A stretch of DNA of 64,000 nucleotides from Armatimonadota bacterium (GTDB taxonomy: Bacteria; Armatimonadota; SYMT01). Positions 1,458-9,618 of the stretch are shown one piece after another. The translations under genes and the position numbers were made by a program. Numbering within the stretch: the stretch's first letter is position 1; every line of letters begins with the position of its first letter. Below the pieces are notes generated by a model. It saw only the letters and a program-made list of their open reading frames with translations, ran no database searches and was not told where the DNA came from. Location of the stretch: NCBI GenBank assembly GCA_046292385.1, contig JBKBRF010000003.1, positions 178,231 through 242,230 of the forward strand, in the 5' to 3' direction.

Positions 1458-1499
1458 CGTAAGATGGGGAGACAGGACCGATCGGACCAGGAGAGTGGA

Positions 1500-1763
1500 A
1501 TGCTGCCGGAAGTGAAGAAGGACGCCACGAACCGCATCAACCGCATCGCGGGACAGGTGGCGGGCGTCAAGAAGATGATCGACGAGGACCGCTACTGCGT
1601 CGACGTGCTGAACCAGATCTCCGCCATCCGCTCCGCGCTCGACCGCCTCGGCGTGGAACTGCTCACCGGCCACCTGGAGAGCTGCGTGATCGGCGCGGAC
1701 GACTGCAAGAAGCACGACTTGCTGGAAGAGGTGCGCGTCTCCCTCAGCCGTTTTCTGAAATAG
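1500..1763 (+). CDS. csoR: CsoR family copper-sensing repressor
   Basis: RINRIAGQV, RYCVDVLNQISA, HLESC (C-H-C ligand set); next to copZ/copA. Confidence 0.93.
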   Translation: MLPEVKKDATNRINRIAGQVAGVKKMIDEDRYCVDVLNQISAIRSALDRLGVELLTGHLESCVIGADDCKKHDLLEEVRVSLSRFLK

Positions 1764-1781
1764 CCCCATGACTAACCCCGC

Positions 1782-1836
1782 TTGTCGCTCATACCCCCAG
1801 GGGGTATAATACGCGAGGTATACCCCCCAGGGGTAT
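1782..1836 (+). promoter_or_regulatory. sigma70 promoter of cop operon with two CsoR operators
   Basis: TTGTCG(1782)-N17-TATAAT(1805); operators ATACCCCCAGGGGGTAT 1791-1807 and ATACCCCCCAGGGGTAT 1820-1836. Confidence 0.85.
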
Positions 1837-1862
1837 TCAGTCCGATGCGAGAGGGTAAGCAC

Positions 1863-2081
1863 ATGAAGGAAGCGCAGGAGATCACGTTCGGGGTAGACGG
1901 CATGGCCTGCGGCGGGTGCGCCGCGGGGCTGGAACGGAGCCTCCGCGAGCAGGAGGGGGTGCGCGAAGCGCGGGTCGACTTCGCCGGACGGCAGGCACGG
2001 ATTTGCTTCGATCCGGCCCGCGTGCAGCCGGAAGGCCTGGCGGCGGCGATCCGCGGCGCGGGCTACGACGTGCGGAGCTAG
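1863..2081 (+). CDS. copZ: CopZ-like copper chaperone (HMA domain)
   Basis: GMACGGC motif, 72 aa, ends AGYDV. Confidence 0.9.
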   Translation: MKEAQEITFGVDGMACGGCAAGLERSLREQEGVREARVDFAGRQARICFDPARVQPEGLAAAIRGAGYDVRS

Positions 2082-2090
2082 GAGGCGGCC

Positions 2091-2486
2091 ATGGATACGG
2101 CGGAAATCTTCGTCACCCTGGGGGGGCTGCTCGCGATCGCGTGGGTGGTCTGGTTCTTCTTCCTCGGGGAGCGGGAGCGGACCGTCGCCGCGGTGGGCGC
2201 CACCGGCGCGCAGGAAGTGAAGATCCTGGTGAAGGGCGGCTACGACCCGGACGTGGTGGTGGTGCGGCAGGGACGGCCGGTGCGGCTGGAGTTCTACCGG
2301 GATGAGACCGCCGGCTGCTCCGACACGGTGGTGCTGGGCGACTTCGGCATCGCCCGGCCCCTACCGCCCTACCAGTCGACGGTGGTGGAGCTCACCCCGG
2401 AGCGGGCGGGAGAGTTTACGTTCACGTGCGGCATGAACATGCTGCGCGGCAAGCTGATCGTCGAGCCGGCGGGGGAGGGAGAGTAG
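2091..2486 (+). CDS. membrane-anchored cupredoxin-domain protein (CupA-like)
   Basis: N-terminal TM helix, GGYDP, upstream Cys, [10 protein letters not shown]. Confidence 0.85.
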
Positions 2487-2488
2487 CG

Positions 2489-4993
2489 ATGCAGACGACG
2501 GAGCGACCCCGGGAGAGCGGGGGCACGGAGCGCGTGGGCGTGCCGGTGACCGGCATGACCTGCGCCGCGTGCGCCGCGCGCATCGAGAAGGTCCTGCGCC
2601 GCACCGAAGGCGTGCGCGAGGCGAACGTCAACTTCGCCGCGCACCGTGCCACGGTGGAGTACGACCCCGCCGCCACCGACACGCGGACCCTGGTGGAGCG
2701 GATCCGGAACGCCGGCTACGGCACCGCCGGCACGGCGGAGGCCCGCTTCCGCGTGAACGACAGCGAGTGCATGACCTGCACGCCGGACAAGCTGGAGAAA
2801 GCGGTCCTCCCCGTCGCCGGGGTGCTGGCAGCCACCTACAACGCCGCCACGCAGCAGGTGATCGTGGAGTACCTGCCGGAGGCCGCGGACCTCGACGTGG
2901 TCCGCCGCGCCCTCGAGTCGGCCGGCTACCGGGTGGAAGACACGCCGCCCGCGGGCGCGGTGGGAGCGCCGGAAGGCGAGGCGGACTGGGAGCAGCAGGC
3001 GCGGGAGCAGGAGTACCGGGAGATCTGGCGGCGGCTGCTGGTGGCGCTGGTGTTCGGCGTGCCGGTGACCGTGGTCGCGATGCTCCATCTCGACTTCCCG
3101 GGCAACCACTGGTTCCAGCTCCTCTTCACCACGCCGGTCGTCTTCTACTCCGGCCGGCCGTTCTTCACCGGCGCCTGGGGCGCGCTGCGGCACCGCTCCG
3201 CCGACATGAACACGCTGATCGCCCTGGGAACCGGGGCGGCGTATCTCTACAGCGTCGTCGCCACGCTCTTCCCGCAGAGCGTCACGGTCGCGGCCGGCCA
3301 CGCGGCGCACGCCGCGGCGCCGGTCTACTTCGAAGCGGCCGCGGTGATCATCGCGCTGATCCTGGTCGGGCGCCTGCTGGAGGCGCGTGCCAAGGCGCGG
3401 ACCGGCGACGCGATCCGGCGCCTGATGGGGCTGCAGGCCCGCACGGCGCGGGTGATCCGCGGCGAGCAGGAGCTGGAGGTCCCGGTCGAAGAGGTGGCGC
3501 CTGGCGACCTGGTGCTGGTGCGCCCGGGCGAGAAGATCCCGGTCGACGGCGTCATCCGGTCCGGCGAGAGCGCGGTCGACGAGTCGATGCTGACCGGCGA
3601 GAGCCTGCCGGTGGAGAAGCGCCCCGGCGACGAGGTGTTCGGCGCGACCGTGAACCGCACCGGCGCCTTCCGCTACGAGGCGACCCGAGTGGGCAAAGAC
3701 TCGGCGCTGCAGCAGATCATCAAGCTGGTGCAGGACGCGCAGGGCAGCAAGGCGCCGATCCAGCGGCTGGCGGACGTGATCAGCGGCATCTTCGTGCCGG
3801 TGGTACTCATCATCGCCATCGCCACCTTCGTGGCCTGGTTCAACTTCGCGCCGGTGGAGACGCGGCTGCAGCAGTCGCTGGTCGCCTTCGTCTCCGTCCT
3901 GATCATCGCCTGCCCCTGCGCCCTCGGCCTCGCGACCCCCACCGCCATCATGGTCGGCACCGGCAAGGGCGCGGAGAACGGCGTGCTGATCAAGGGCGGC
4001 GAGAGCCTGGAGACGGCGCACCGGCTGAGCGCCATCATCCTGGACAAGACCGGCACGATCACCCACGGACGGCCGGAGCTGACCGACGTGCTCGCCGCGG
4101 CGGGGGGAGAAGCGGCCGAGACCGAGCTGCTGCGCCTGGCGGCGGCGGCGGAGCGCTCCTCGGAGCACCCGCTCGGCGAGGCGATCGTCCGGGCCGCCGA
4201 GGCGCGGGGGCTCCCGCTGCCCGAGCCGAGCGCGTTCCAGTCGCTCACCGGCCGGGGCCTGGAGGCGACCGTCGACGGTCGTTCCCTGCTGGTCGGCAAC
4301 CGGCGGTTGATGGAGGAGCGGGGAATCGACATCTCGGCGCTCGACGACGCGATGACTCGGCTCGCCGGGGAGGGCAAGACCCCGATGCTGGCGGCAGTCG
4401 ACGGCGCCGCGGCCGGCATCCTCGCGGTGGCGGACACGGTGAAGGAGAGCTCACCCGCCGCGGTGGCGGCGCTGCGGCGGATGGGGCTGGAAGTGGCGAT
4501 GATCACCGGCGACAACCGCCGCACCGCGGAAGCGGTGGCGCGGCAGGTCGGGATCGACCGCGTCCTCGCCGAGGTCCTGCCGGAGCACAAGGCGGAGCAG
4601 GTGAAGCAGCTTCAGTCCGAAGGCAAGGTGGTGGCGATGGTCGGCGACGGCATCAACGACGCCCCCGCGCTGGCGCAGGCGGACGTCGGCATCGCGATCG
4701 GCACCGGCACCGACATCGCGATGGAGGCGTCCGACGTCACGCTGATCCGGGGCGACCTGAACGGCGTGGTGACCGCGGTCGAGCTCTCCCGCGCTACGAT
4801 GCGGACGATCAAGCAGAATCTCTTCTTCGCCTTCATCTACAACACGCTCGGGATCCCGGTCGCGGCGGGGGTCTTCTACCCGCTCTTCGGGTGGATGCTC
4901 TCCCCGATGTTCGCCAGCGCGGCGATGGCGCTCTCCAGCGTCTCCGTGGTCACCAACAGCCTCCGCCTCCGCGGCTTCCACCCGCGGAGGTAG
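2489..4993 (+). CDS. copA: Cu(I)-exporting P1B-1 ATPase
   Basis: GMTCAAC plus a second CMTC metal-binding domain, TGES, CPC, DKTGT, HP, GDGIND, YN and MALSS motifs. Confidence 0.95.
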
Positions 4994-5057
4994 GGTGGCG
5001 TCGGACGGTGTCTAAGCGCACGGCGCGCAGACGGTACCCTCCAGCGTGGGAGTCATT

Positions 5058-5195
5058 TGGAGTGCGGAAGCTTGCTTCCGCTTTGAGGAGCCTTTCGCCA
5101 CGGTAGCTTTCTGCGAGCGAAAGCAAGCTCTCGCAGCAGGCGGCGGACCGGCCTCGGAGGCTGCGGCGAAAGCGGGAGCGAGCTCCCGCACTCCA
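5058..5195. repeat. REP-like inverted repeat pair
   Basis: TGGAGTGCGGAAGCTTGCTTCCGCTTT ... AAAGCGGGAGCGAGCTCCCGCACTCCA. Confidence 0.75.
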
Positions 5196-5252
5196 GATTC
5201 CGTCCCGCTCAGCCTGGATCGCCCGACGCAGATGTGGATCCGGAGGAAAGCC

Positions 5253-5609
5253 ATGCGCATCGGCTCCATCGTCATCTACTGCCGCGACTTCCCGACGATG
5301 CGCCGCTTCTGGCGGGAGGCGCTCCGCTACGTGCCGCGGGAGGAGCCGGAGGACGGGTGGGTCGTGCTCTGCGACCCGCGCGGACCGAACGTCAACGTCT
5401 CGCTTAACCGGGCGAGCGAGCCCCGCGCCGAGCGGGGGCGGCTGCACCCCGACCTCTACACGCCGGACGCCGCGACGGAGGTGGAGCGGCTGCTCGCGCT
5501 GGGAGCCACCCTCCACCCGCGGCGGGCGGAGCCGGACGAGGACTTCACCGTGCTGGCCGACCCGGAAGGAAACCTCTTCTGCGTGGTGGAGAAGCGCGCC
5601 CGCGCCTGA
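5253..5609 (+). CDS. VOC/glyoxalase family protein
   Basis: RIGSIVI..RFWREAL..LHPDL..VLADPEGNLFCVV; GGAGG SD. Confidence 0.88.
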   Translation: MRIGSIVIYCRDFPTMRRFWREALRYVPREEPEDGWVVLCDPRGPNVNVSLNRASEPRAERGRLHPDLYTPDAATEVERLLALGATLHPRRAEPDEDFTVLADPEGNLFCVVEKRARA

Positions 5610-5707
5610 TCTTTCGTTTGCCGACCGGGAGCCGGAGGGCAGGAGTCTCTGGAGGCCCCGCCTCCCCCGCCCGATCGGCGGGCGGGGACCCACGAGTGAG
5701 GAAGAGG

Positions 5708-6070
5708 ATGCCCCACGTAAGCCCCGAGATGCGCGAGTGTATCGACGCCTGCACCTCCTGCCACCAGACCTGCGTCGAGACGGTGACCCACTGCCTGCAG
5801 ATGGGCGGCAAGCACGCGGAAGCGGACCATATCCGGCTGATGCTCGACTGCGCCGAGATCTGCGAGACGAGCGCCAACTTCATGCTGCGCGGCTCGGACC
5901 TGCACCAGGAGACCTGCCGCACCTGCGCCGTCGTTTGCGAGCGCTGCGCCGAAGACTGCGAGCGCTTCGACGAGGACTTCATGCAGCGGTGCGCCGAGGA
6001 GTGCCGCAACTGTGCGGAGCACTGCCGCCGCATGGCGGGCTCCCAGCGCACGATGGCACGCGCCGCCTAG
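5708..6070 (+). CDS. four-helix-bundle copper storage protein (Csp3/DUF326-like)
   Basis: 16 Cys in CxxC/CxxxC helical spacing, no signal peptide. Confidence 0.88.
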   Translation: MPHVSPEMRECIDACTSCHQTCVETVTHCLQMGGKHAEADHIRLMLDCAEICETSANFMLRGSDLHQETCRTCAVVCERCAEDCERFDEDFMQRCAEECRNCAEHCRRMAGSQRTMARAA

Positions 6071-6211
6071 CACACCCTCTGGGGAGCCGGCCGGGTGCCG
6101 GCTCCCCCCCGCGCCTCTCCCACCTGCAGCTTCTCCGTGAGTTTGCGTCCCCCAGGCGGCCGGGTACGCACCGTTGAGAGGGACCGAACGGCAACTGCGG
6201 GAGAGGGCGAG

Positions 6212-6784
6212 ATGATCGAGAAGATGCGGAGGGCACTGGCAGCCGCCGGGGTGCTGGCGGCGACTCTGGCCGTCCCGGCGCTGGGCTGGGGACCGGACGC
6301 GGAGGCGGCGGCTTCGACCCAGCAGGGGATTCAGGGTCCCGTCCCTGCTCCGGAGAGCACGGGAAGCGCCGCCGGGCAGGTAGACGCGCGGGACCCCGCG
6401 CAGCCCGTCCAGGCACCGGCGGATCCGGCCGGGGCCGCGGCAGAGCGCGCCGATCCCGGCGGCATTCCGGGAGGTGACATGGTGGGCGGGGTGCTGGTGC
6501 CGGAGACCGGCGGCGACGCGATTGGCTCGCAGAGCGTGAGGGAGCCGCTTCCCAGAGGGGCAGAAACGCTCTCGCGGGAGGGGGCGAGCACCTCGCCGCA
6601 GCAGGCGCAGGACGATGTCTACGGCCGGCACGATCCGGAGTATCTGGAGCCTGGTAAGCGCGGCGAGTGGGACACCAACTTCGCGTGGCTCGCCCTTCTC
6701 CTGATCCCGTTCCTGGTGGGCGGTGCGGCCGTCTGGTGGATGCGCCAGCGAGGCACCCCGCGGGAGCGGCATCCCGCGCCCTAG
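6212..6784 (+). CDS. exported low-complexity protein with C-terminal membrane anchor
   Basis: signal peptide, Pro/Ala/Gly/Gln-rich body, TM segment followed by MRQR basic tail. Confidence 0.7.
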   Translation: MIEKMRRALAAAGVLAATLAVPALGWGPDAEAAASTQQGIQGPVPAPESTGSAAGQVDARDPAQPVQAPADPAGAAAERADPGGIPGGDMVGGVLVPETGGDAIGSQSVREPLPRGAETLSREGASTSPQQAQDDVYGRHDPEYLEPGKRGEWDTNFAWLALLLIPFLVGGAAVWWMRQRGTPRERHPAP

Positions 6785-6799
6785 CCCGGCGCGATGCGC

Positions 6800-6833
6800 G
6801 CGGCCGGCGGCTGGGACGGAAGGCCGCCGGCCG
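6800..6833. terminator. GC-rich hairpin between convergent genes
   Basis: CGGCCGGCGGC / GCCGCCGGCCG 11-bp stem; no U tract. Confidence 0.45.
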
Positions 6834-6850
6834 GTCGCCTTTCGCGCCGC

Positions 6851-7445
6851 CTACCTGCCGCTCGGCGGCGCGGAGATACTGCTCGTACGGCACCGCGCCG
6901 GTGATCACCTCGTCGCGGATGAAGACGGTCGGGATGCCCTGCACCCCCTGCTCCAGCGCCTCGCGGTACTCGGACCAGACTTCCTCGAGCCCGTCGCCCG
7001 CCTCCAGCGCAGCGGTCAGCGCCGACGCGTCGATGCCGGCACGGGCGGCGAGCTCCGCCAGCACGGCCGCGTCGCTGACGTCGCGCGTCTCCTGGAAGAA
7101 GGCCTCGAAGAGGGAGAGGTCGAACGCGTCGAAGCGGTCCGGCGCGTGGCGCTTCACCCACGCCGCCGCCTGCAGCGCCGGCAGCGACGAGGACGGGTAG
7201 CGGCTCCCCACCTCCGGCAGGTCGAACGGCAGCCCGGTCAGCTCCCGCGCCGCCCGGCGGTGGCGGAGGTGGTATTCCGTGAACCGGTGCTCTCCCGGCT
7301 CGCCGCGCAGCACGAAGGCGCGGTGGACCAGGCGGACCGGCACCCCCAGCTCCTGCTGCAGCTTCCGCAGGCGCACGGCCGCGGGCCAGCACCAGGGTCA
7401 GAGGTAGTCCGAGACGACCGTAATCTCCAGCGGCTCTCCGGGCAT
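6851..7445 (-). CDS. DsbA/FrnE family thioredoxin-fold protein, putative selenoprotein (UPWC)
   Basis: ATG 7445 with AGGAG SD; MPGEPLEITVVSDYL-TGA-PWCW; GVQGIPTV cis-Pro loop and GAVPYE. Domain ends near 6855, but the first in-frame stop is at 5979; TAG at 6853-6851 is 1 nt out of frame, so the 3' end is uncertain. Confidence 0.82.
7365..7384 (-). promoter_or_regulatory. candidate bacterial SECIS element (DsbA gene)
   Basis: CCGC-GGC-CGUGC-GCC-U-GCGG hairpin; loop at +21..+25 after UGA with GU at +22/+23. Confidence 0.55.
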
Positions 7446-7515
7446 GGCTCTACTCCTGACAGCTTCTCTCGGGGCCAGTCTACCCCACGCGGGCGACCGG
7501 CCAACCACCCGGGAA

Positions 7516-8730
7516 TCAGTGCGCCAGCACGAAGGCGCCGTCCGGACGCGCATAGGCCGCGGGAACGCCCCAGACCGGCACCCCGTCGGGAAGCCTTCCG
7601 AGCTCGCCGATCGGCTTTCCGGAGCGGTCGAACCGCTGCCAGGCGAGGTGTCCGCCGCGGCGCCACGCGGTCCCTTCCGTCCAGGCGAGCAGCACCTCCC
7701 CGTCCGGGTTGACCGCCAGCGCGGGGTGCTTCCGGCTCCCGGCCTCTCCCGGCGCCGCGACCGCCGGACCGATCCGGCCGGTGCGGGGATCCACCCGGCC
7801 GAAGTAGACCTGCCCCGCCGTCTCCCACGCCGCCAGCACGCCGTTCGGGCCCTCGACCAGGGCCCAGCTGCTCATCGGTCAGGTGTCGATCTTCCACCGG
7901 TCTCCCTGGGCCCCCCGGAAGCTCTTGCCGGCGTCTCCGGACGACAGCAGGTACGTGTCTCGGTTCACCTTGCCGTCCGCGGTGCGGTAGAGCACGTAGA
8001 CGCCGCCGCTGCTGTCGGCAAACACCTTCGTCAGGCAGCAGGGGCAGGCGCCGGTCGGCTCCGTCTCCACCGCGCGCTCCGCGGCGAAAGTGCGGCCGTC
8101 GTCCGCCGATTGGGCCATCCAGACCCGCCGCTTCTCCTCTCCCGGACCCGGTTTACCCGGCGCGACGGCGCCCTCCGCGCCGTGCCAGGCGACATAGACG
8201 CCGCCCCGTCGGTCGGCCGCGATACCCGGGCCGCCGTCGAGCAGCGAGCTGGCGTGCATCAGGGGCCGCTGCGGCTCGAACGTGGTCCCGGCCTCGCTCA
8301 GCCGGGAGTAGAGCACCGGCGCGCCGCCGAGCGGGTTCGCCTCCGCGCGGCTGGAGCCGAACCAGACCACGTGCGGGCGCCCACCCTTCCCCAGCGCAAG
8401 CTGGCCGCCGCGGATGGTGCCGGCCGCGACCGCGCTGCCGGGGACGCTGTTCACTCGCAGTGGCGCTGCCCACTCACCGCCCGCGGCGGGACGGCGGGTG
8501 TAGAACAGGTCGCCGCTGGCGTCCTGCCCCTGGTAGTAGAGCAGGTGGACCTGGCCGGATGCGTCGACCGCCACCTGCGGCTGGATGCCGCCGTCCGGGG
8601 GGCGCACCAGCTCGACCGGGGCCGCCGCGGCCGCCCGCGCCGGCTCCACGCTCCGGCATCCACCGCCGACCAGCACGCCGCACGCGGCGGAGCCGATCCC
8701 GAGCACCACCGATCGACGCGTCCGTTTCAT
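7516..8730 (-). CDS. BNR/sialidase-like beta-propeller Tat lipoprotein, putative selenoprotein (404 aa, U284)
   Basis: RR signal and GGGC lipobox; Asp-boxes SADDGRTF and SGDAGKSF; CPCC; WKIDT-TGA-PMSS read-through joins track ORFs ending 7879 and starting 7875 in the same frame. Confidence 0.8.
7846..7866 (-). promoter_or_regulatory. candidate bacterial SECIS element (BNR gene)
   Basis: UGGGCCCU-GGUCG-AGGGCCCG 8-bp stem starting at +13 after UGA; loop +21..+25 with GU at +22/+23. Confidence 0.72.
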
Positions 8731-8841
8731 CCGCTGCTTCCTTTGCTGAACCTTCGCTGCTATGCGAGTCGCCCGGAAAGGGATTGCCGTCGGGCAGTAG
8801 AATTGGGCCAGGTAGCTGCCCCATGTCCGGAGGTCTAGCCC

Positions 8842-9618
8842 GTGCTCCCGATCGCCGCCCCCGGCCCGCTCTCCCCGCTCGAGCGCTTTCTCTTCGACGT
8901 GACCGGATTCCTCGTCATCCCCGGCGCGCTCACCTCCGAGGAGGTGACGGCGTGCCTGGGAGCGGCGGAGCGCGCGCACGCCGCCCACCCGCCGGAGGAG
9001 TGGAGCCAGCTCGGCGCGCTCTACGAGCGGGAGCCGGCGGTCGAGCCCCTGATCGACCATCCCTCCGTGCTCCCGAAGGTCCGCGCGCTGCTGGGCGACC
9101 ACTTCATCCTGCAGAGCAGCTGGTGCACCCGCTCGCCCGCGCACTTTCCCGGCCAGCGGTTCCATCAGGACGGCTCCAGCGTCTACGAGTTCCGCCGCCT
9201 CGGCACCCCCGTGCCGCTGCTGCAGCTCCGGATCGGCTTCTTCCTGACCGACCAGTCGCGGCCCGACATGGGGAACATGGTGCTCGTTCCCGGCAGCCAC
9301 AATGCCTCCGAGCCGCTGCCGCCGGGCACGCAGCCGGAGGAGCTCCCCATCGCCCAGGTGATCTGCGGCCGGCCCGGCACCGCGCTGCTGTTCCACCAGG
9401 GCGTCTGGCACTGCGGCACCCGCAACGCGATGGACTTCCCCCGCTACATCCAGCACATGGTCTACGCCCCGCCCTGGCTGGTCCCGTCCGACCGCCGCGG
9501 CAACGATTCGGAGTTCCTCGCACGCACCACGCCGCTCCGGCGCGCCCTCCTGGGGGAGTGGAATCGCCCGGAGGAGCCGTTCGGGATCGGCTACCCGCCT
9601 CCGCCTTTCGACGACTGA
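8842..9618 (+). CDS. phytanoyl-CoA dioxygenase (PhyH) family protein
   Basis: FDVTGFLVIPGAL, HQD, VPGSH and WH facial-triad pattern. Confidence 0.88.
   Translation: MLPIAAPGPLSPLERFLFDVTGFLVIPGALTSEEVTACLGAAERAHAAHPPEEWSQLGALYEREPAVEPLIDHPSVLPKVRALLGDHFILQSSWCTRSPAHFPGQRFHQDGSSVYEFRRLGTPVPLLQLRIGFFLTDQSRPDMGNMVLVPGSHNASEPLPPGTQPEELPIAQVICGRPGTALLFHQGVWHCGTRNAMDFPRYIQHMVYAPPWLVPSDRRGNDSEFLARTTPLRRALLGEWNRPEEPFGIGYPPPPFDD

Follow-up and report, generated by a model that had tools for sequence, protein, structure and literature searches.

Two neighbouring genes with in-frame UGA codons in an Armatimonadota bacterium, encoding an exported beta-propeller and a DsbA-like protein, are predicted to be selenoprotein genes

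The window analysed here, a stretch of 64,000 nucleotides (nt) from contig JBKBRF010000003.1 of an Armatimonadota bacterium (assembly GCA_046292385.1, positions 178,231 to 242,230 of the forward strand), contains two adjacent genes on the minus strand, gene A and gene B, each interrupted by a single in-frame TGA. The locus raises the question of whether these codons are read as selenocysteine (Sec) and, if they are, what the two products do and whether they do it together. A first-pass annotation of the window had proposed a Sec-dependent module composed of an exported beta-propeller and a thioredoxin-fold oxidoreductase. Judged from sequence comparisons and a structural model, both UGAs very probably specify Sec through SelA, SelB, SelD and tRNA-Sec, gene A encoding an exported propeller and gene B a member of a known family, and the two do not form a conserved functional pair. 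The positions and motifs given in the annotation for two co-oriented genes, each with one in-frame TGA, were correct. Gene B lies downstream of gene A on the same strand, with 70 nt between the stop codon of gene A and the ATG of gene B, and the frame of gene A is open from the ATG at 8730, past the internal TGA, to the TGA at 7518..7516. As the annotation had also remarked, the open reading frame (ORF) track breaks both genes: under genetic code table 11, gene A yields ORFs of 283 and 119 amino acids (aa) and gene B loses its N-terminus, and a public protein collection stores the split pieces as separate entries (P0004, P0166). The lower boundary of 6851 had to be abandoned, as it rests on an out-of-frame TAG and the frame of gene B meets no stop until 5981..5979. 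The features of the two genes are as follows.

7516..8730, minus strand: gene A, predicted selenoprotein, an exported beta-propeller of seven blades, 404 residues followed by the stop TGA at 7518..7516
8656..8730, minus strand: putative signal peptide region of gene A, with a basic RR stretch, a hydrophobic core and Cys at residues 17 and 25 (by eye)
8035..8046, minus strand: CxCC motif of gene A (C229, C231, C232), invariant across the propeller family
7879..7881, minus strand: predicted Sec codon UGA of gene A, residue U284, context WKIDT-U-PMSS
7848..7864, minus strand: candidate selenocysteine insertion sequence (SECIS) hairpin of gene A, 7-pair stem, first base 14 nt after the UGA
6843..7445, minus strand: gene B, predicted DsbA/FrnE-like thioredoxin-fold selenoprotein, domain part, ATG at 7445..7443
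7398..7400, minus strand: predicted Sec codon UGA of gene B, first residue (U16) of the redox motif U-P-W-C, context DYL-U-PWC
7370..7393, minus strand: hairpin after the UGA of gene B, possible SECIS, 10 pairs, one bulge and a 3-nt loop
5979..6842, minus strand: stop-less extension of the gene B frame, Arg/Pro-rich, antisense to two plus-strand genes

The source genome (G000; 7.04 Mb in 91 contigs, 98.45% complete) encodes all the components of Sec insertion that were looked for. Its tRNA-Sec scored 66.6 bits against a gathering score of 47 and was classified by ARAGORN as tRNA-SeC with anticodon tca, and selA (577.9 bits), selB (367.5 bits) and selD (362.3 bits) all exceeded the curated cut-offs. 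The genes for SelA, SelD and tRNA-Sec are clustered on one contig (C11:87438-90122), where a tRNA-Ala gene adjoins that of tRNA-Sec, and selD itself carries one in-frame TGA. A tRNA-Sec above the cut-off was likewise detected in G004, G005 and G328, which are all the other genomes with a TGA form of either gene. TGA is also the normal stop codon for three of the nine window genes checked, namely those for PhyH and an aldo-keto reductase, and gene A.

The TGA codons recur in independent data. Contigs from other sequencing runs, three of them (X2, X3 and X4) from three other studies, were aligned to positions 6800-8800 of the window. The codon of gene A (7879-7881) was identical in X2 record 8 and X3 record 15, and that of gene B (7398-7400) in X4 record 20; X2 record 6, from a slightly diverged strain, kept the TGA at 7398-7400 next to a synonymous change at 7401, in the preceding codon. 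A further run (X1) was fully identical, but is possibly the assembly's own source.

Homologues have either Cys or TGA at both sites. In the 11 aligned genes of the relatives, the residue-284 column of gene A held Sec in three (G000, G004 and G005) and Cys in eight. Among 80 genome loci the same column held Cys in 79 and TGA in one, a count biased towards Cys, since Cys at this column was required by one of the two search patterns. A metagenome scan with patterns taken from the C-terminal part only, and thus avoiding this column, returned among its best 80 loci 13 with TGA, 49 with TGC and 18 with TGT, and nothing else. At the U16 column of gene B, Sec stood in two genes, the TGA form of G004 among them, and Cys in nine further genes. 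The gene B subfamily, searched in 401 genomes of the phylum at E <= 1e-20, was present in five, with TGA in G000, G004 and G328 and Cys in G005 and G255. Of the 42 database relatives of gene B, 15 were aligned, four of which contain CPWC and 11 begin after the motif, the behaviour expected of a gene caller that meets a TGA there, although some of these may be contig-end cuts. The checks suggested with the first-pass annotation, on the Sec machinery, on TGC, TGT or TGG in place of the TGAs and on the homologous columns, all favoured its reading of both TGAs as Sec codons, given that the machinery is present and that homologues have Cys at both columns.

The sequence following the TGA of gene A remains conserved through to the shared C-terminus of the propeller. 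Residues 285-404 are matched by 297 short database proteins, and at least 103 of the best 120 of these start at Met286 and are 118-119 aa long, which identifies them as split gene calls downstream of a TGA; one of the split C-terminal pieces is labelled Gemmataceae and another Armatimonadota.

The Sec forms of gene A are further set apart by a hairpin. Sixteen Sec forms with DNA available (15 distinct over the hairpin stretch) were compared with 67 Cys forms. A stem of seven pairs, joining columns 18-24 with columns 28-34 counted from the U of the UGA, is common to all 16 Sec forms, with seven of seven pairs in 12 and six of seven in four, the copy of the source genome having six pairs and a 5-nt loop. 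Six or more pairs were formed by 6 of the 67 Cys forms, in which three to four pairs were the most frequent outcome. Pairing was found in 96.4% of the cells of the Sec-form alignment, compared with 61-70% when the partner was slid by one column, and folding of 60 nt gave a mean of -24.7 kcal/mol for Sec forms against -20.3 kcal/mol for Cys forms (Mann-Whitney p = 1.6e-4). The stem lies in the codons for A-L-V-E-G, which are unchanging in the two Sec subgroups but differ among Cys forms; after the TGA, all 16 Sec forms have the same codons, CCG-ATG-AGC, and these too differ among Cys forms. This GC-rich hairpin, starting 14 nt after the UGA, would be the SelB-binding SECIS of gene A, written within the A-L-V-E-G codons; the assignment comes from the contrast with Cys forms and from the spacing usual for bacterial SECIS elements. 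The hairpin would have frozen these five codons in all Sec forms, and gene A would then be a natural example of a SECIS constraining protein sequence, A-L-V-E-G being fixed in the Sec forms only.

Several points weigh against this picture. Pair changes in the stem comprise one compensatory change from G-C to U-A (in L165) and three from G-C to G-U, so that covariation is thin: four of the seven pairs never vary, only one pair changes on both sides, and the score is attained by 28 of 500 shuffles. Because of this weak covariation, the hairpin argument rests on the contrast with the Cys forms. The Sec forms are also slightly higher in G+C (0.70 against 0.66) and related to one another. The hairpin of gene B is kept in three Sec forms, but L036, a Cys form, has a similar one, and the gene B hairpin folds no more stably than shuffled sequences do (z-score 0.2); it does not separate Sec from Cys forms and was taken as evidence in neither direction. 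Gene B, in addition, has no stop at the usual place, and this copy may be impaired.

Two Cys-form propellers, in loci L092 (about 1106-1108) and L180, have a TGA at the column of the invariant Trp279 (TGG to TGA) and keep Cys284. These are likely real defects, and not every in-frame TGA in the family encodes Sec. That the two TGAs of the window are themselves nonsense mutations or sequencing or assembly errors, and both genes dead, is hardly credible, since, although the family does contain such cases (L092 and L180) and gene B is without its normal stop, independent runs from other studies show the same letters, TGA recurs exactly at the Cys column (three genomes and 13 metagenome loci for gene A, three genomes for gene B), the sequence past the TGA is conserved and a hairpin specific to the TGA forms exists.

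Scarcely more credible is a true split gene A, in which translation would stop at the UGA and restart at the AUG of UGA-CCG-AUG, the two chains forming one propeller. An ATG is indeed found one codon after the TGA in 16 of 16 TGA forms, and gene callers yield a 119-aa product. That Met is, however, equally invariant in 67 of 67 Cys forms, and is therefore nothing special to the TGA forms, and the break would always delete one of the four invariant Cys. Every break is, moreover, a TGA at one and the same column in genomes with Sec machinery, and a split gene would leave the hairpin unexplained.

The distribution of the two states at residue 284 was examined in a quick tree of 75 rows, in which two groups of Sec forms appeared, both within the same part of it. 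The first consists of Armatimonadota and is mixed with Cys forms; the second, labelled "MSTM", has a Cys form as its sister. The tree gave no support to the Sec forms having arisen only once: parsimony required five changes and the well-supported branches forced at least three, in agreement with a smaller tree. The presence of Sec machinery was also rejected as the determinant of the state: selA exceeded its cut-off in 32 of 41 relatives, Cys-form genomes included, and the Cys or Sec state therefore does not simply follow the machinery.

The only Pfam match to gene A was a short one to BNR_4 (30 bits against a cut-off of 27.3), with BNR_2 below its cut-off (15.8 against 31.4 bits), and none of the families of NCBIfam release 20.0 matched at E <= 0.01. 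An AlphaFold2 model built on 112 sequences had a mean predicted local distance difference test (pLDDT) score of 92.4 and a predicted template modelling (pTM) score of 0.89. Fold searches with this model returned generic seven-bladed propellers, namely CylK (Z 27.2), the BP39L and PLL lectins (Z 25.6) and WD40 proteins (about Z 21), or, ranked by template modelling (TM) score, PHL lectins (0.57) and sialidases (about 0.5), and found no functional relative. Database searches gave 1599 proteins matching at E <= 0.001, whose names, where given, are "hypothetical" or "sialidase family protein", and a protein-atlas search with a natural Cys homologue produced only "BNR/sialidase family" clusters. 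Gene A thus shares with the BNR/Asp-box sialidase-family propellers a weak BNR_4 match, two Asp-box-like motifs and the names of its homologues. It differs from sialidases in its sub-threshold BNR_2 score and in a structural similarity (TM about 0.5, 14-17% identity) exceeded by that to seven-bladed lectins and CylK, a comparison with GH33 enzymes made at the level of profile and fold scores, and the quartet of CxCC and C/U284 is no sialidase feature.

In the family, C229, C231, C232 and C284 are invariant among 112 aligned propeller sequences (with Sec as the alternative at the last), and the CxCC motif was present in 80 of 80 genome loci. His62, His120, His183 and His335 are near-invariant. 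A Cys form occurs in the culturable Singulisphaera sp. GP187 (locus L109). Hydrophobic leaders were recognized by eye at the homologue N-termini, of which 45 of 58 were read, and the propeller family is accordingly taken to be exported. Neither a Tat nor a lipoprotein signal was upheld as a family trait, RR-type motifs occurring in only 6 of 58 N-termini and lipobox-like ones in 9 of 58 (simple patterns). The propeller was found in the genomes of 12 of 41 relatives and, by record titles, in bins of Planctomycetota, Acidobacteriota, Verrucomicrobiota, Armatimonadota and Abditibacteriaceae. The titles Heliomicrobium, Saccharimonadales, Bifidobacteriaceae, Actinomycetes and Limnocylindria (among L053, L054, L096, L115, L082, L085, L088 and L108) clash with the placement of their propellers, which group with those of Acidobacteriota, Verrucomicrobiota or Armatimonadota, and these bin labels may be unreliable.

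Gene A is absent from the 119 selenoprotein families inventoried in Table 1 of a 2026 review (PMC13188914). Literature searches found no paper on a bacterial beta-propeller selenoprotein, to judge by titles and abstract openings, none linking sialidase family proteins with copper and copA, none linking selenocysteine with sialidase among the papers listed, and, again among those listed, nothing relevant on the selenoproteomes of Planctomycetota and Armatimonadota. As far as that table, NCBIfam and those literature searches extend, gene A represents a selenoprotein family not found in them, and gene B an ordinary member of a known one. The propeller family would have gone unseen as a selenoprotein because gene callers have divided it into a pair of "hypothetical proteins", a split seen in a hundred or more database clusters, and the selenoproteomes of soil Armatimonadota and of bins labelled Planctomycetota are probably under-counted.

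The product of gene B matched PF01323 (DSBA) over residues 8-192 with 101 bits against a cut-off of 25.6, and its best sequence relatives in the PDB were FrnE and other cytoplasmic DsbA-like proteins (E 2e-9 to 6e-5). It starts straight at the first strand of the thioredoxin fold and has no signal peptide. Together with the fold model of gene A, these matches bear out the earlier description of the products as an exported beta-propeller and a thioredoxin-fold oxidoreductase. Gene B shares with the FrnE and cytoplasmic DsbA-like proteins (PDB 5cnw/5cp1, 2in3 and DsbM 5hfi) a CPWC-type motif and the absence of a signal peptide, whereas FrnE, 2in3 and DsbM have Cys where gene B has Sec, and the similarity is low. 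On this reading the product would act in the cytoplasm as a thiol-disulfide oxidoreductase of DsbA/FrnE type, with Sec standing in for the attacking, N-terminal Cys of the CxxC motif. Table 1 of the review lists a "DsbA-like protein form 1, PF01323, UxxC" (PMC13188914), with which gene B has in common the PF01323 domain, Sec at the first CxxC position and the existence of Cys orthologues; since domain and UxxC motif match that entry, gene B is a new member of this known selenoprotein family. It differs from form 1 in that the copy studied here lacks the usual C-terminal stop and in that few genomes of the phylum (5 of 401) carry its subfamily. The Rcas_1661 family thioredoxin-like (seleno)lipoprotein (NF041057) was considered and rejected, gene B reaching 46.6 bits against a cut-off of 190 and over the C-terminal half only.

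The frame of gene B runs for 488 codons to 5981..5979, about 290 codons beyond where all homologues end. A near-identical strain in run X2 showed six differences, all within 6833-6853, two of which (6846 and 6848) turn codon 200 into TGA. The missing stop looks like a stop-loss allele or a consensus error.

The notion of a Sec-dependent module fared less well than that of the two Sec codons. We consider it improbable that the DsbA-like protein reduces or oxidizes the Cys/Sec centre of the propeller as its functional partner. In favour of such a pairing, both genes point the same way across a gap of 70 nt in which no terminator-like site was detected, a scan of 6500-9000 for promoters and terminators having returned no site, and their adjacency is kept in a strain variant (X2 record 6). 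A thioredoxin-fold gene of a different type (TlpA/ResA-like) also stands beside the propeller in the Blastocatellia-type operons (7 loci). However, the 160 other propeller loci fetched, many of them with short flanks, yielded no DsbA-like homologue, and the near-identical strain of X2 record 6 is the only one in which the adjacency is kept; in G005, propeller and DsbA-like genes lie on different contigs. The two proteins differ in export status, the propeller having a signal peptide and the DsbA-like protein none, and in distribution, with the DsbA-like subfamily in 5 of 401 genomes (E <= 1e-20) against 12 of 41 for the propeller. A module is not supported by these comparisons: gene A and gene B appear to be neighbours in the source species rather than a conserved functional pair, and the copper neighbourhood described below would matter for the propeller family alone.

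The two selenoprotein genes face a complete copper operon on the opposite strand (genes assigned with Pfam).

1464..6070, plus strand: copper operon, convergent on gene A and gene B
1464-1763, plus strand: csoR, repressor of the CsoR family
1782-2081, plus strand: copZ, CopZ-like HMA protein
2426-4993, plus strand: copA, copper P1B ATPase
5618-6070, plus strand: DUF326/Csp-like gene, product Cys-rich

The location beside copper genes claimed in the first-pass annotation holds as regards the adjoining csoR-copZ-copA operon, its copA scoring 643.6 bits with TIGR01511 against a cut-off of 397, but the csp gene stays below the Csp1 model (TIGR04401, 30 bits against a cut-off of 100). ORFs of 89 propeller loci were clustered, and the commonest neighbours of the propeller were P1B copper ATPases (18), histidine kinases (12) and resistance-nodulation-division (RND) pumps (10), followed by S-adenosylmethionine (SAM) methyltransferases (9), TlpA/ResA-like redoxins (7) and CusB-like adaptors (7). 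The copper-ATPase model TIGR01511 was passed by all four ATPases tested (those of the window, L096, L122 and L071), and the CusA/CzcA model by three of five RND pumps. Arrangements differ: in L096, L122, L052, L107 and L126 the propeller is directly preceded by copA on its own strand, while in L099 cusB-cusA directly follow the propeller. Adjacent copA, cusA or cusB genes, in differing arrangements, were found in Acidobacteriota, Verrucomicrobiota, Planctomycetota and two families of the window's own phylum.

Copper genes were counted by tblastn thresholds within the fetched flanks, many of which were short. Of 80 genome loci, 23 had a CopA-, CusA- or CusB-like gene in the flanks, the figure for the 55 loci of at least 9 kb being 14; three of the RND matches among the 23 were only 23-29% identical to CusA. 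Metagenome loci, with a median length of 2.6 kb, had a copper gene in 3 of 80 cases and in none of the 18 loci of at least 5 kb. Two of these three are the Sec forms L126 and L165, whose CopA is 83-85% identical to that of the window and is encoded upstream on the same strand in L126 and convergently, 20 nt from the propeller, in L165. On these counts the copper link is recurrent across phyla and arrangements, yet far from universal.

In the Blastocatellia-like bins (L096, L098, L107, L054, L074 and L053) a conserved operon comprises copA, the propeller, a SAM methyltransferase, a TlpA/ResA-like redoxin and a histidine kinase, sometimes with a second propeller paralogue. In G005, a minus-strand gene (L076:8528-9862) some 2.4 kb away from the Sec-form propeller encodes YHS and cupredoxin-like domains, both of which are copper-related.

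In the secondary structure of the gene A model, the conserved motifs at residues 50-52, 104-108, 164-167, 227-232, 284-288 and 333-336 each lie ahead of a blade's first strand. By the topology of such blades, motifs in this position should ring the mouth of the central channel and would so bring the CxCC motif and U284 together. The four invariant residues, C229-x-C231-C232 and C/U284, would sit at the start of two neighbouring blades, the fourth being Sec in the lineage of the source genome. A residue that alternates between Sec and Cys is generally a redox-active or metal-ligating one, and Sec rarely replaces a purely structural Cys. Since such a pair usually marks a chemically active residue, the Sec form indicates which residue is the active one in this uncharacterised family spread over several phyla. 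Outside the cytoplasm, the quartet may act as a centre that is redox-active or binds metal through thiolate/selenolate, working with copper exported by CopA or CusAB. That the propeller uses a thiolate/selenolate centre in the periplasm to act on exported copper, by binding, hand-over or redox chemistry, is in our view plausible, if still short of probable.

Two features of the neighbourhood count against such a role: the link is partial, most loci having no copper gene in their flanks (23 of 80 genome and 3 of 80 metagenome loci have one), and copA of the window is convergent with gene A and not co-transcribed with it. There is a distinct possibility that the four propeller Cys form structural disulfides or a metal-unrelated enzyme site and that the proximity of copper genes is incidental, in keeping with the loci lacking such genes and with fold searches that gave generic propellers only (lectins, CylK, WD40 proteins and sialidases). 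Set against it are the adjacency of copA, cusA or cusB in several phyla and in differing arrangements, and the general rarity with which Sec takes the place of a purely structural Cys.

A centre acting on exported copper would have parallels among metal-linked selenoproteins, which include FdhA and [NiFeSe] hydrogenase (both with Sec as a metal ligand), a cation-transporting ATPase and the SO_0444 Cu/Zn efflux transporter, several selenoproteins of this kind being implicated in metal resistance (PMC13188914). Gene A resembles those covered in that review in its Cys-rich Sec site and heavy-metal gene context and differs in that none of them is a beta-propeller, its own metal role being a proposal. 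The recurrent copper-exporter neighbours make the propeller a testable candidate for a new periplasmic copper-handling step. A broader version, bolder and on balance doubtful, would have the propeller found a widespread, unrecognised extracytoplasmic copper-handling family of soil bacteria, in which CxCC and Cys/Sec bind or redox-cycle exported copper; among selenoproteins, its Sec forms would then be the first with a part in periplasmic copper homeostasis and also the first with a beta-propeller fold, with repeated exchange between Cys and Sec and a SECIS carved from five codons.

Between the copper operon and the selenoprotein genes, a plus-strand gene (6095-6784) encodes a hypothetical protein with no match in Pfam or NCBIfam. 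By eye, its product begins with what resembles a signal peptide and has, at its C-terminus, a hydrophobic anchor and then basic residues. On the far side of the copper operon, a gene for an Mn-catalase occupies 57-1058 on the minus strand.

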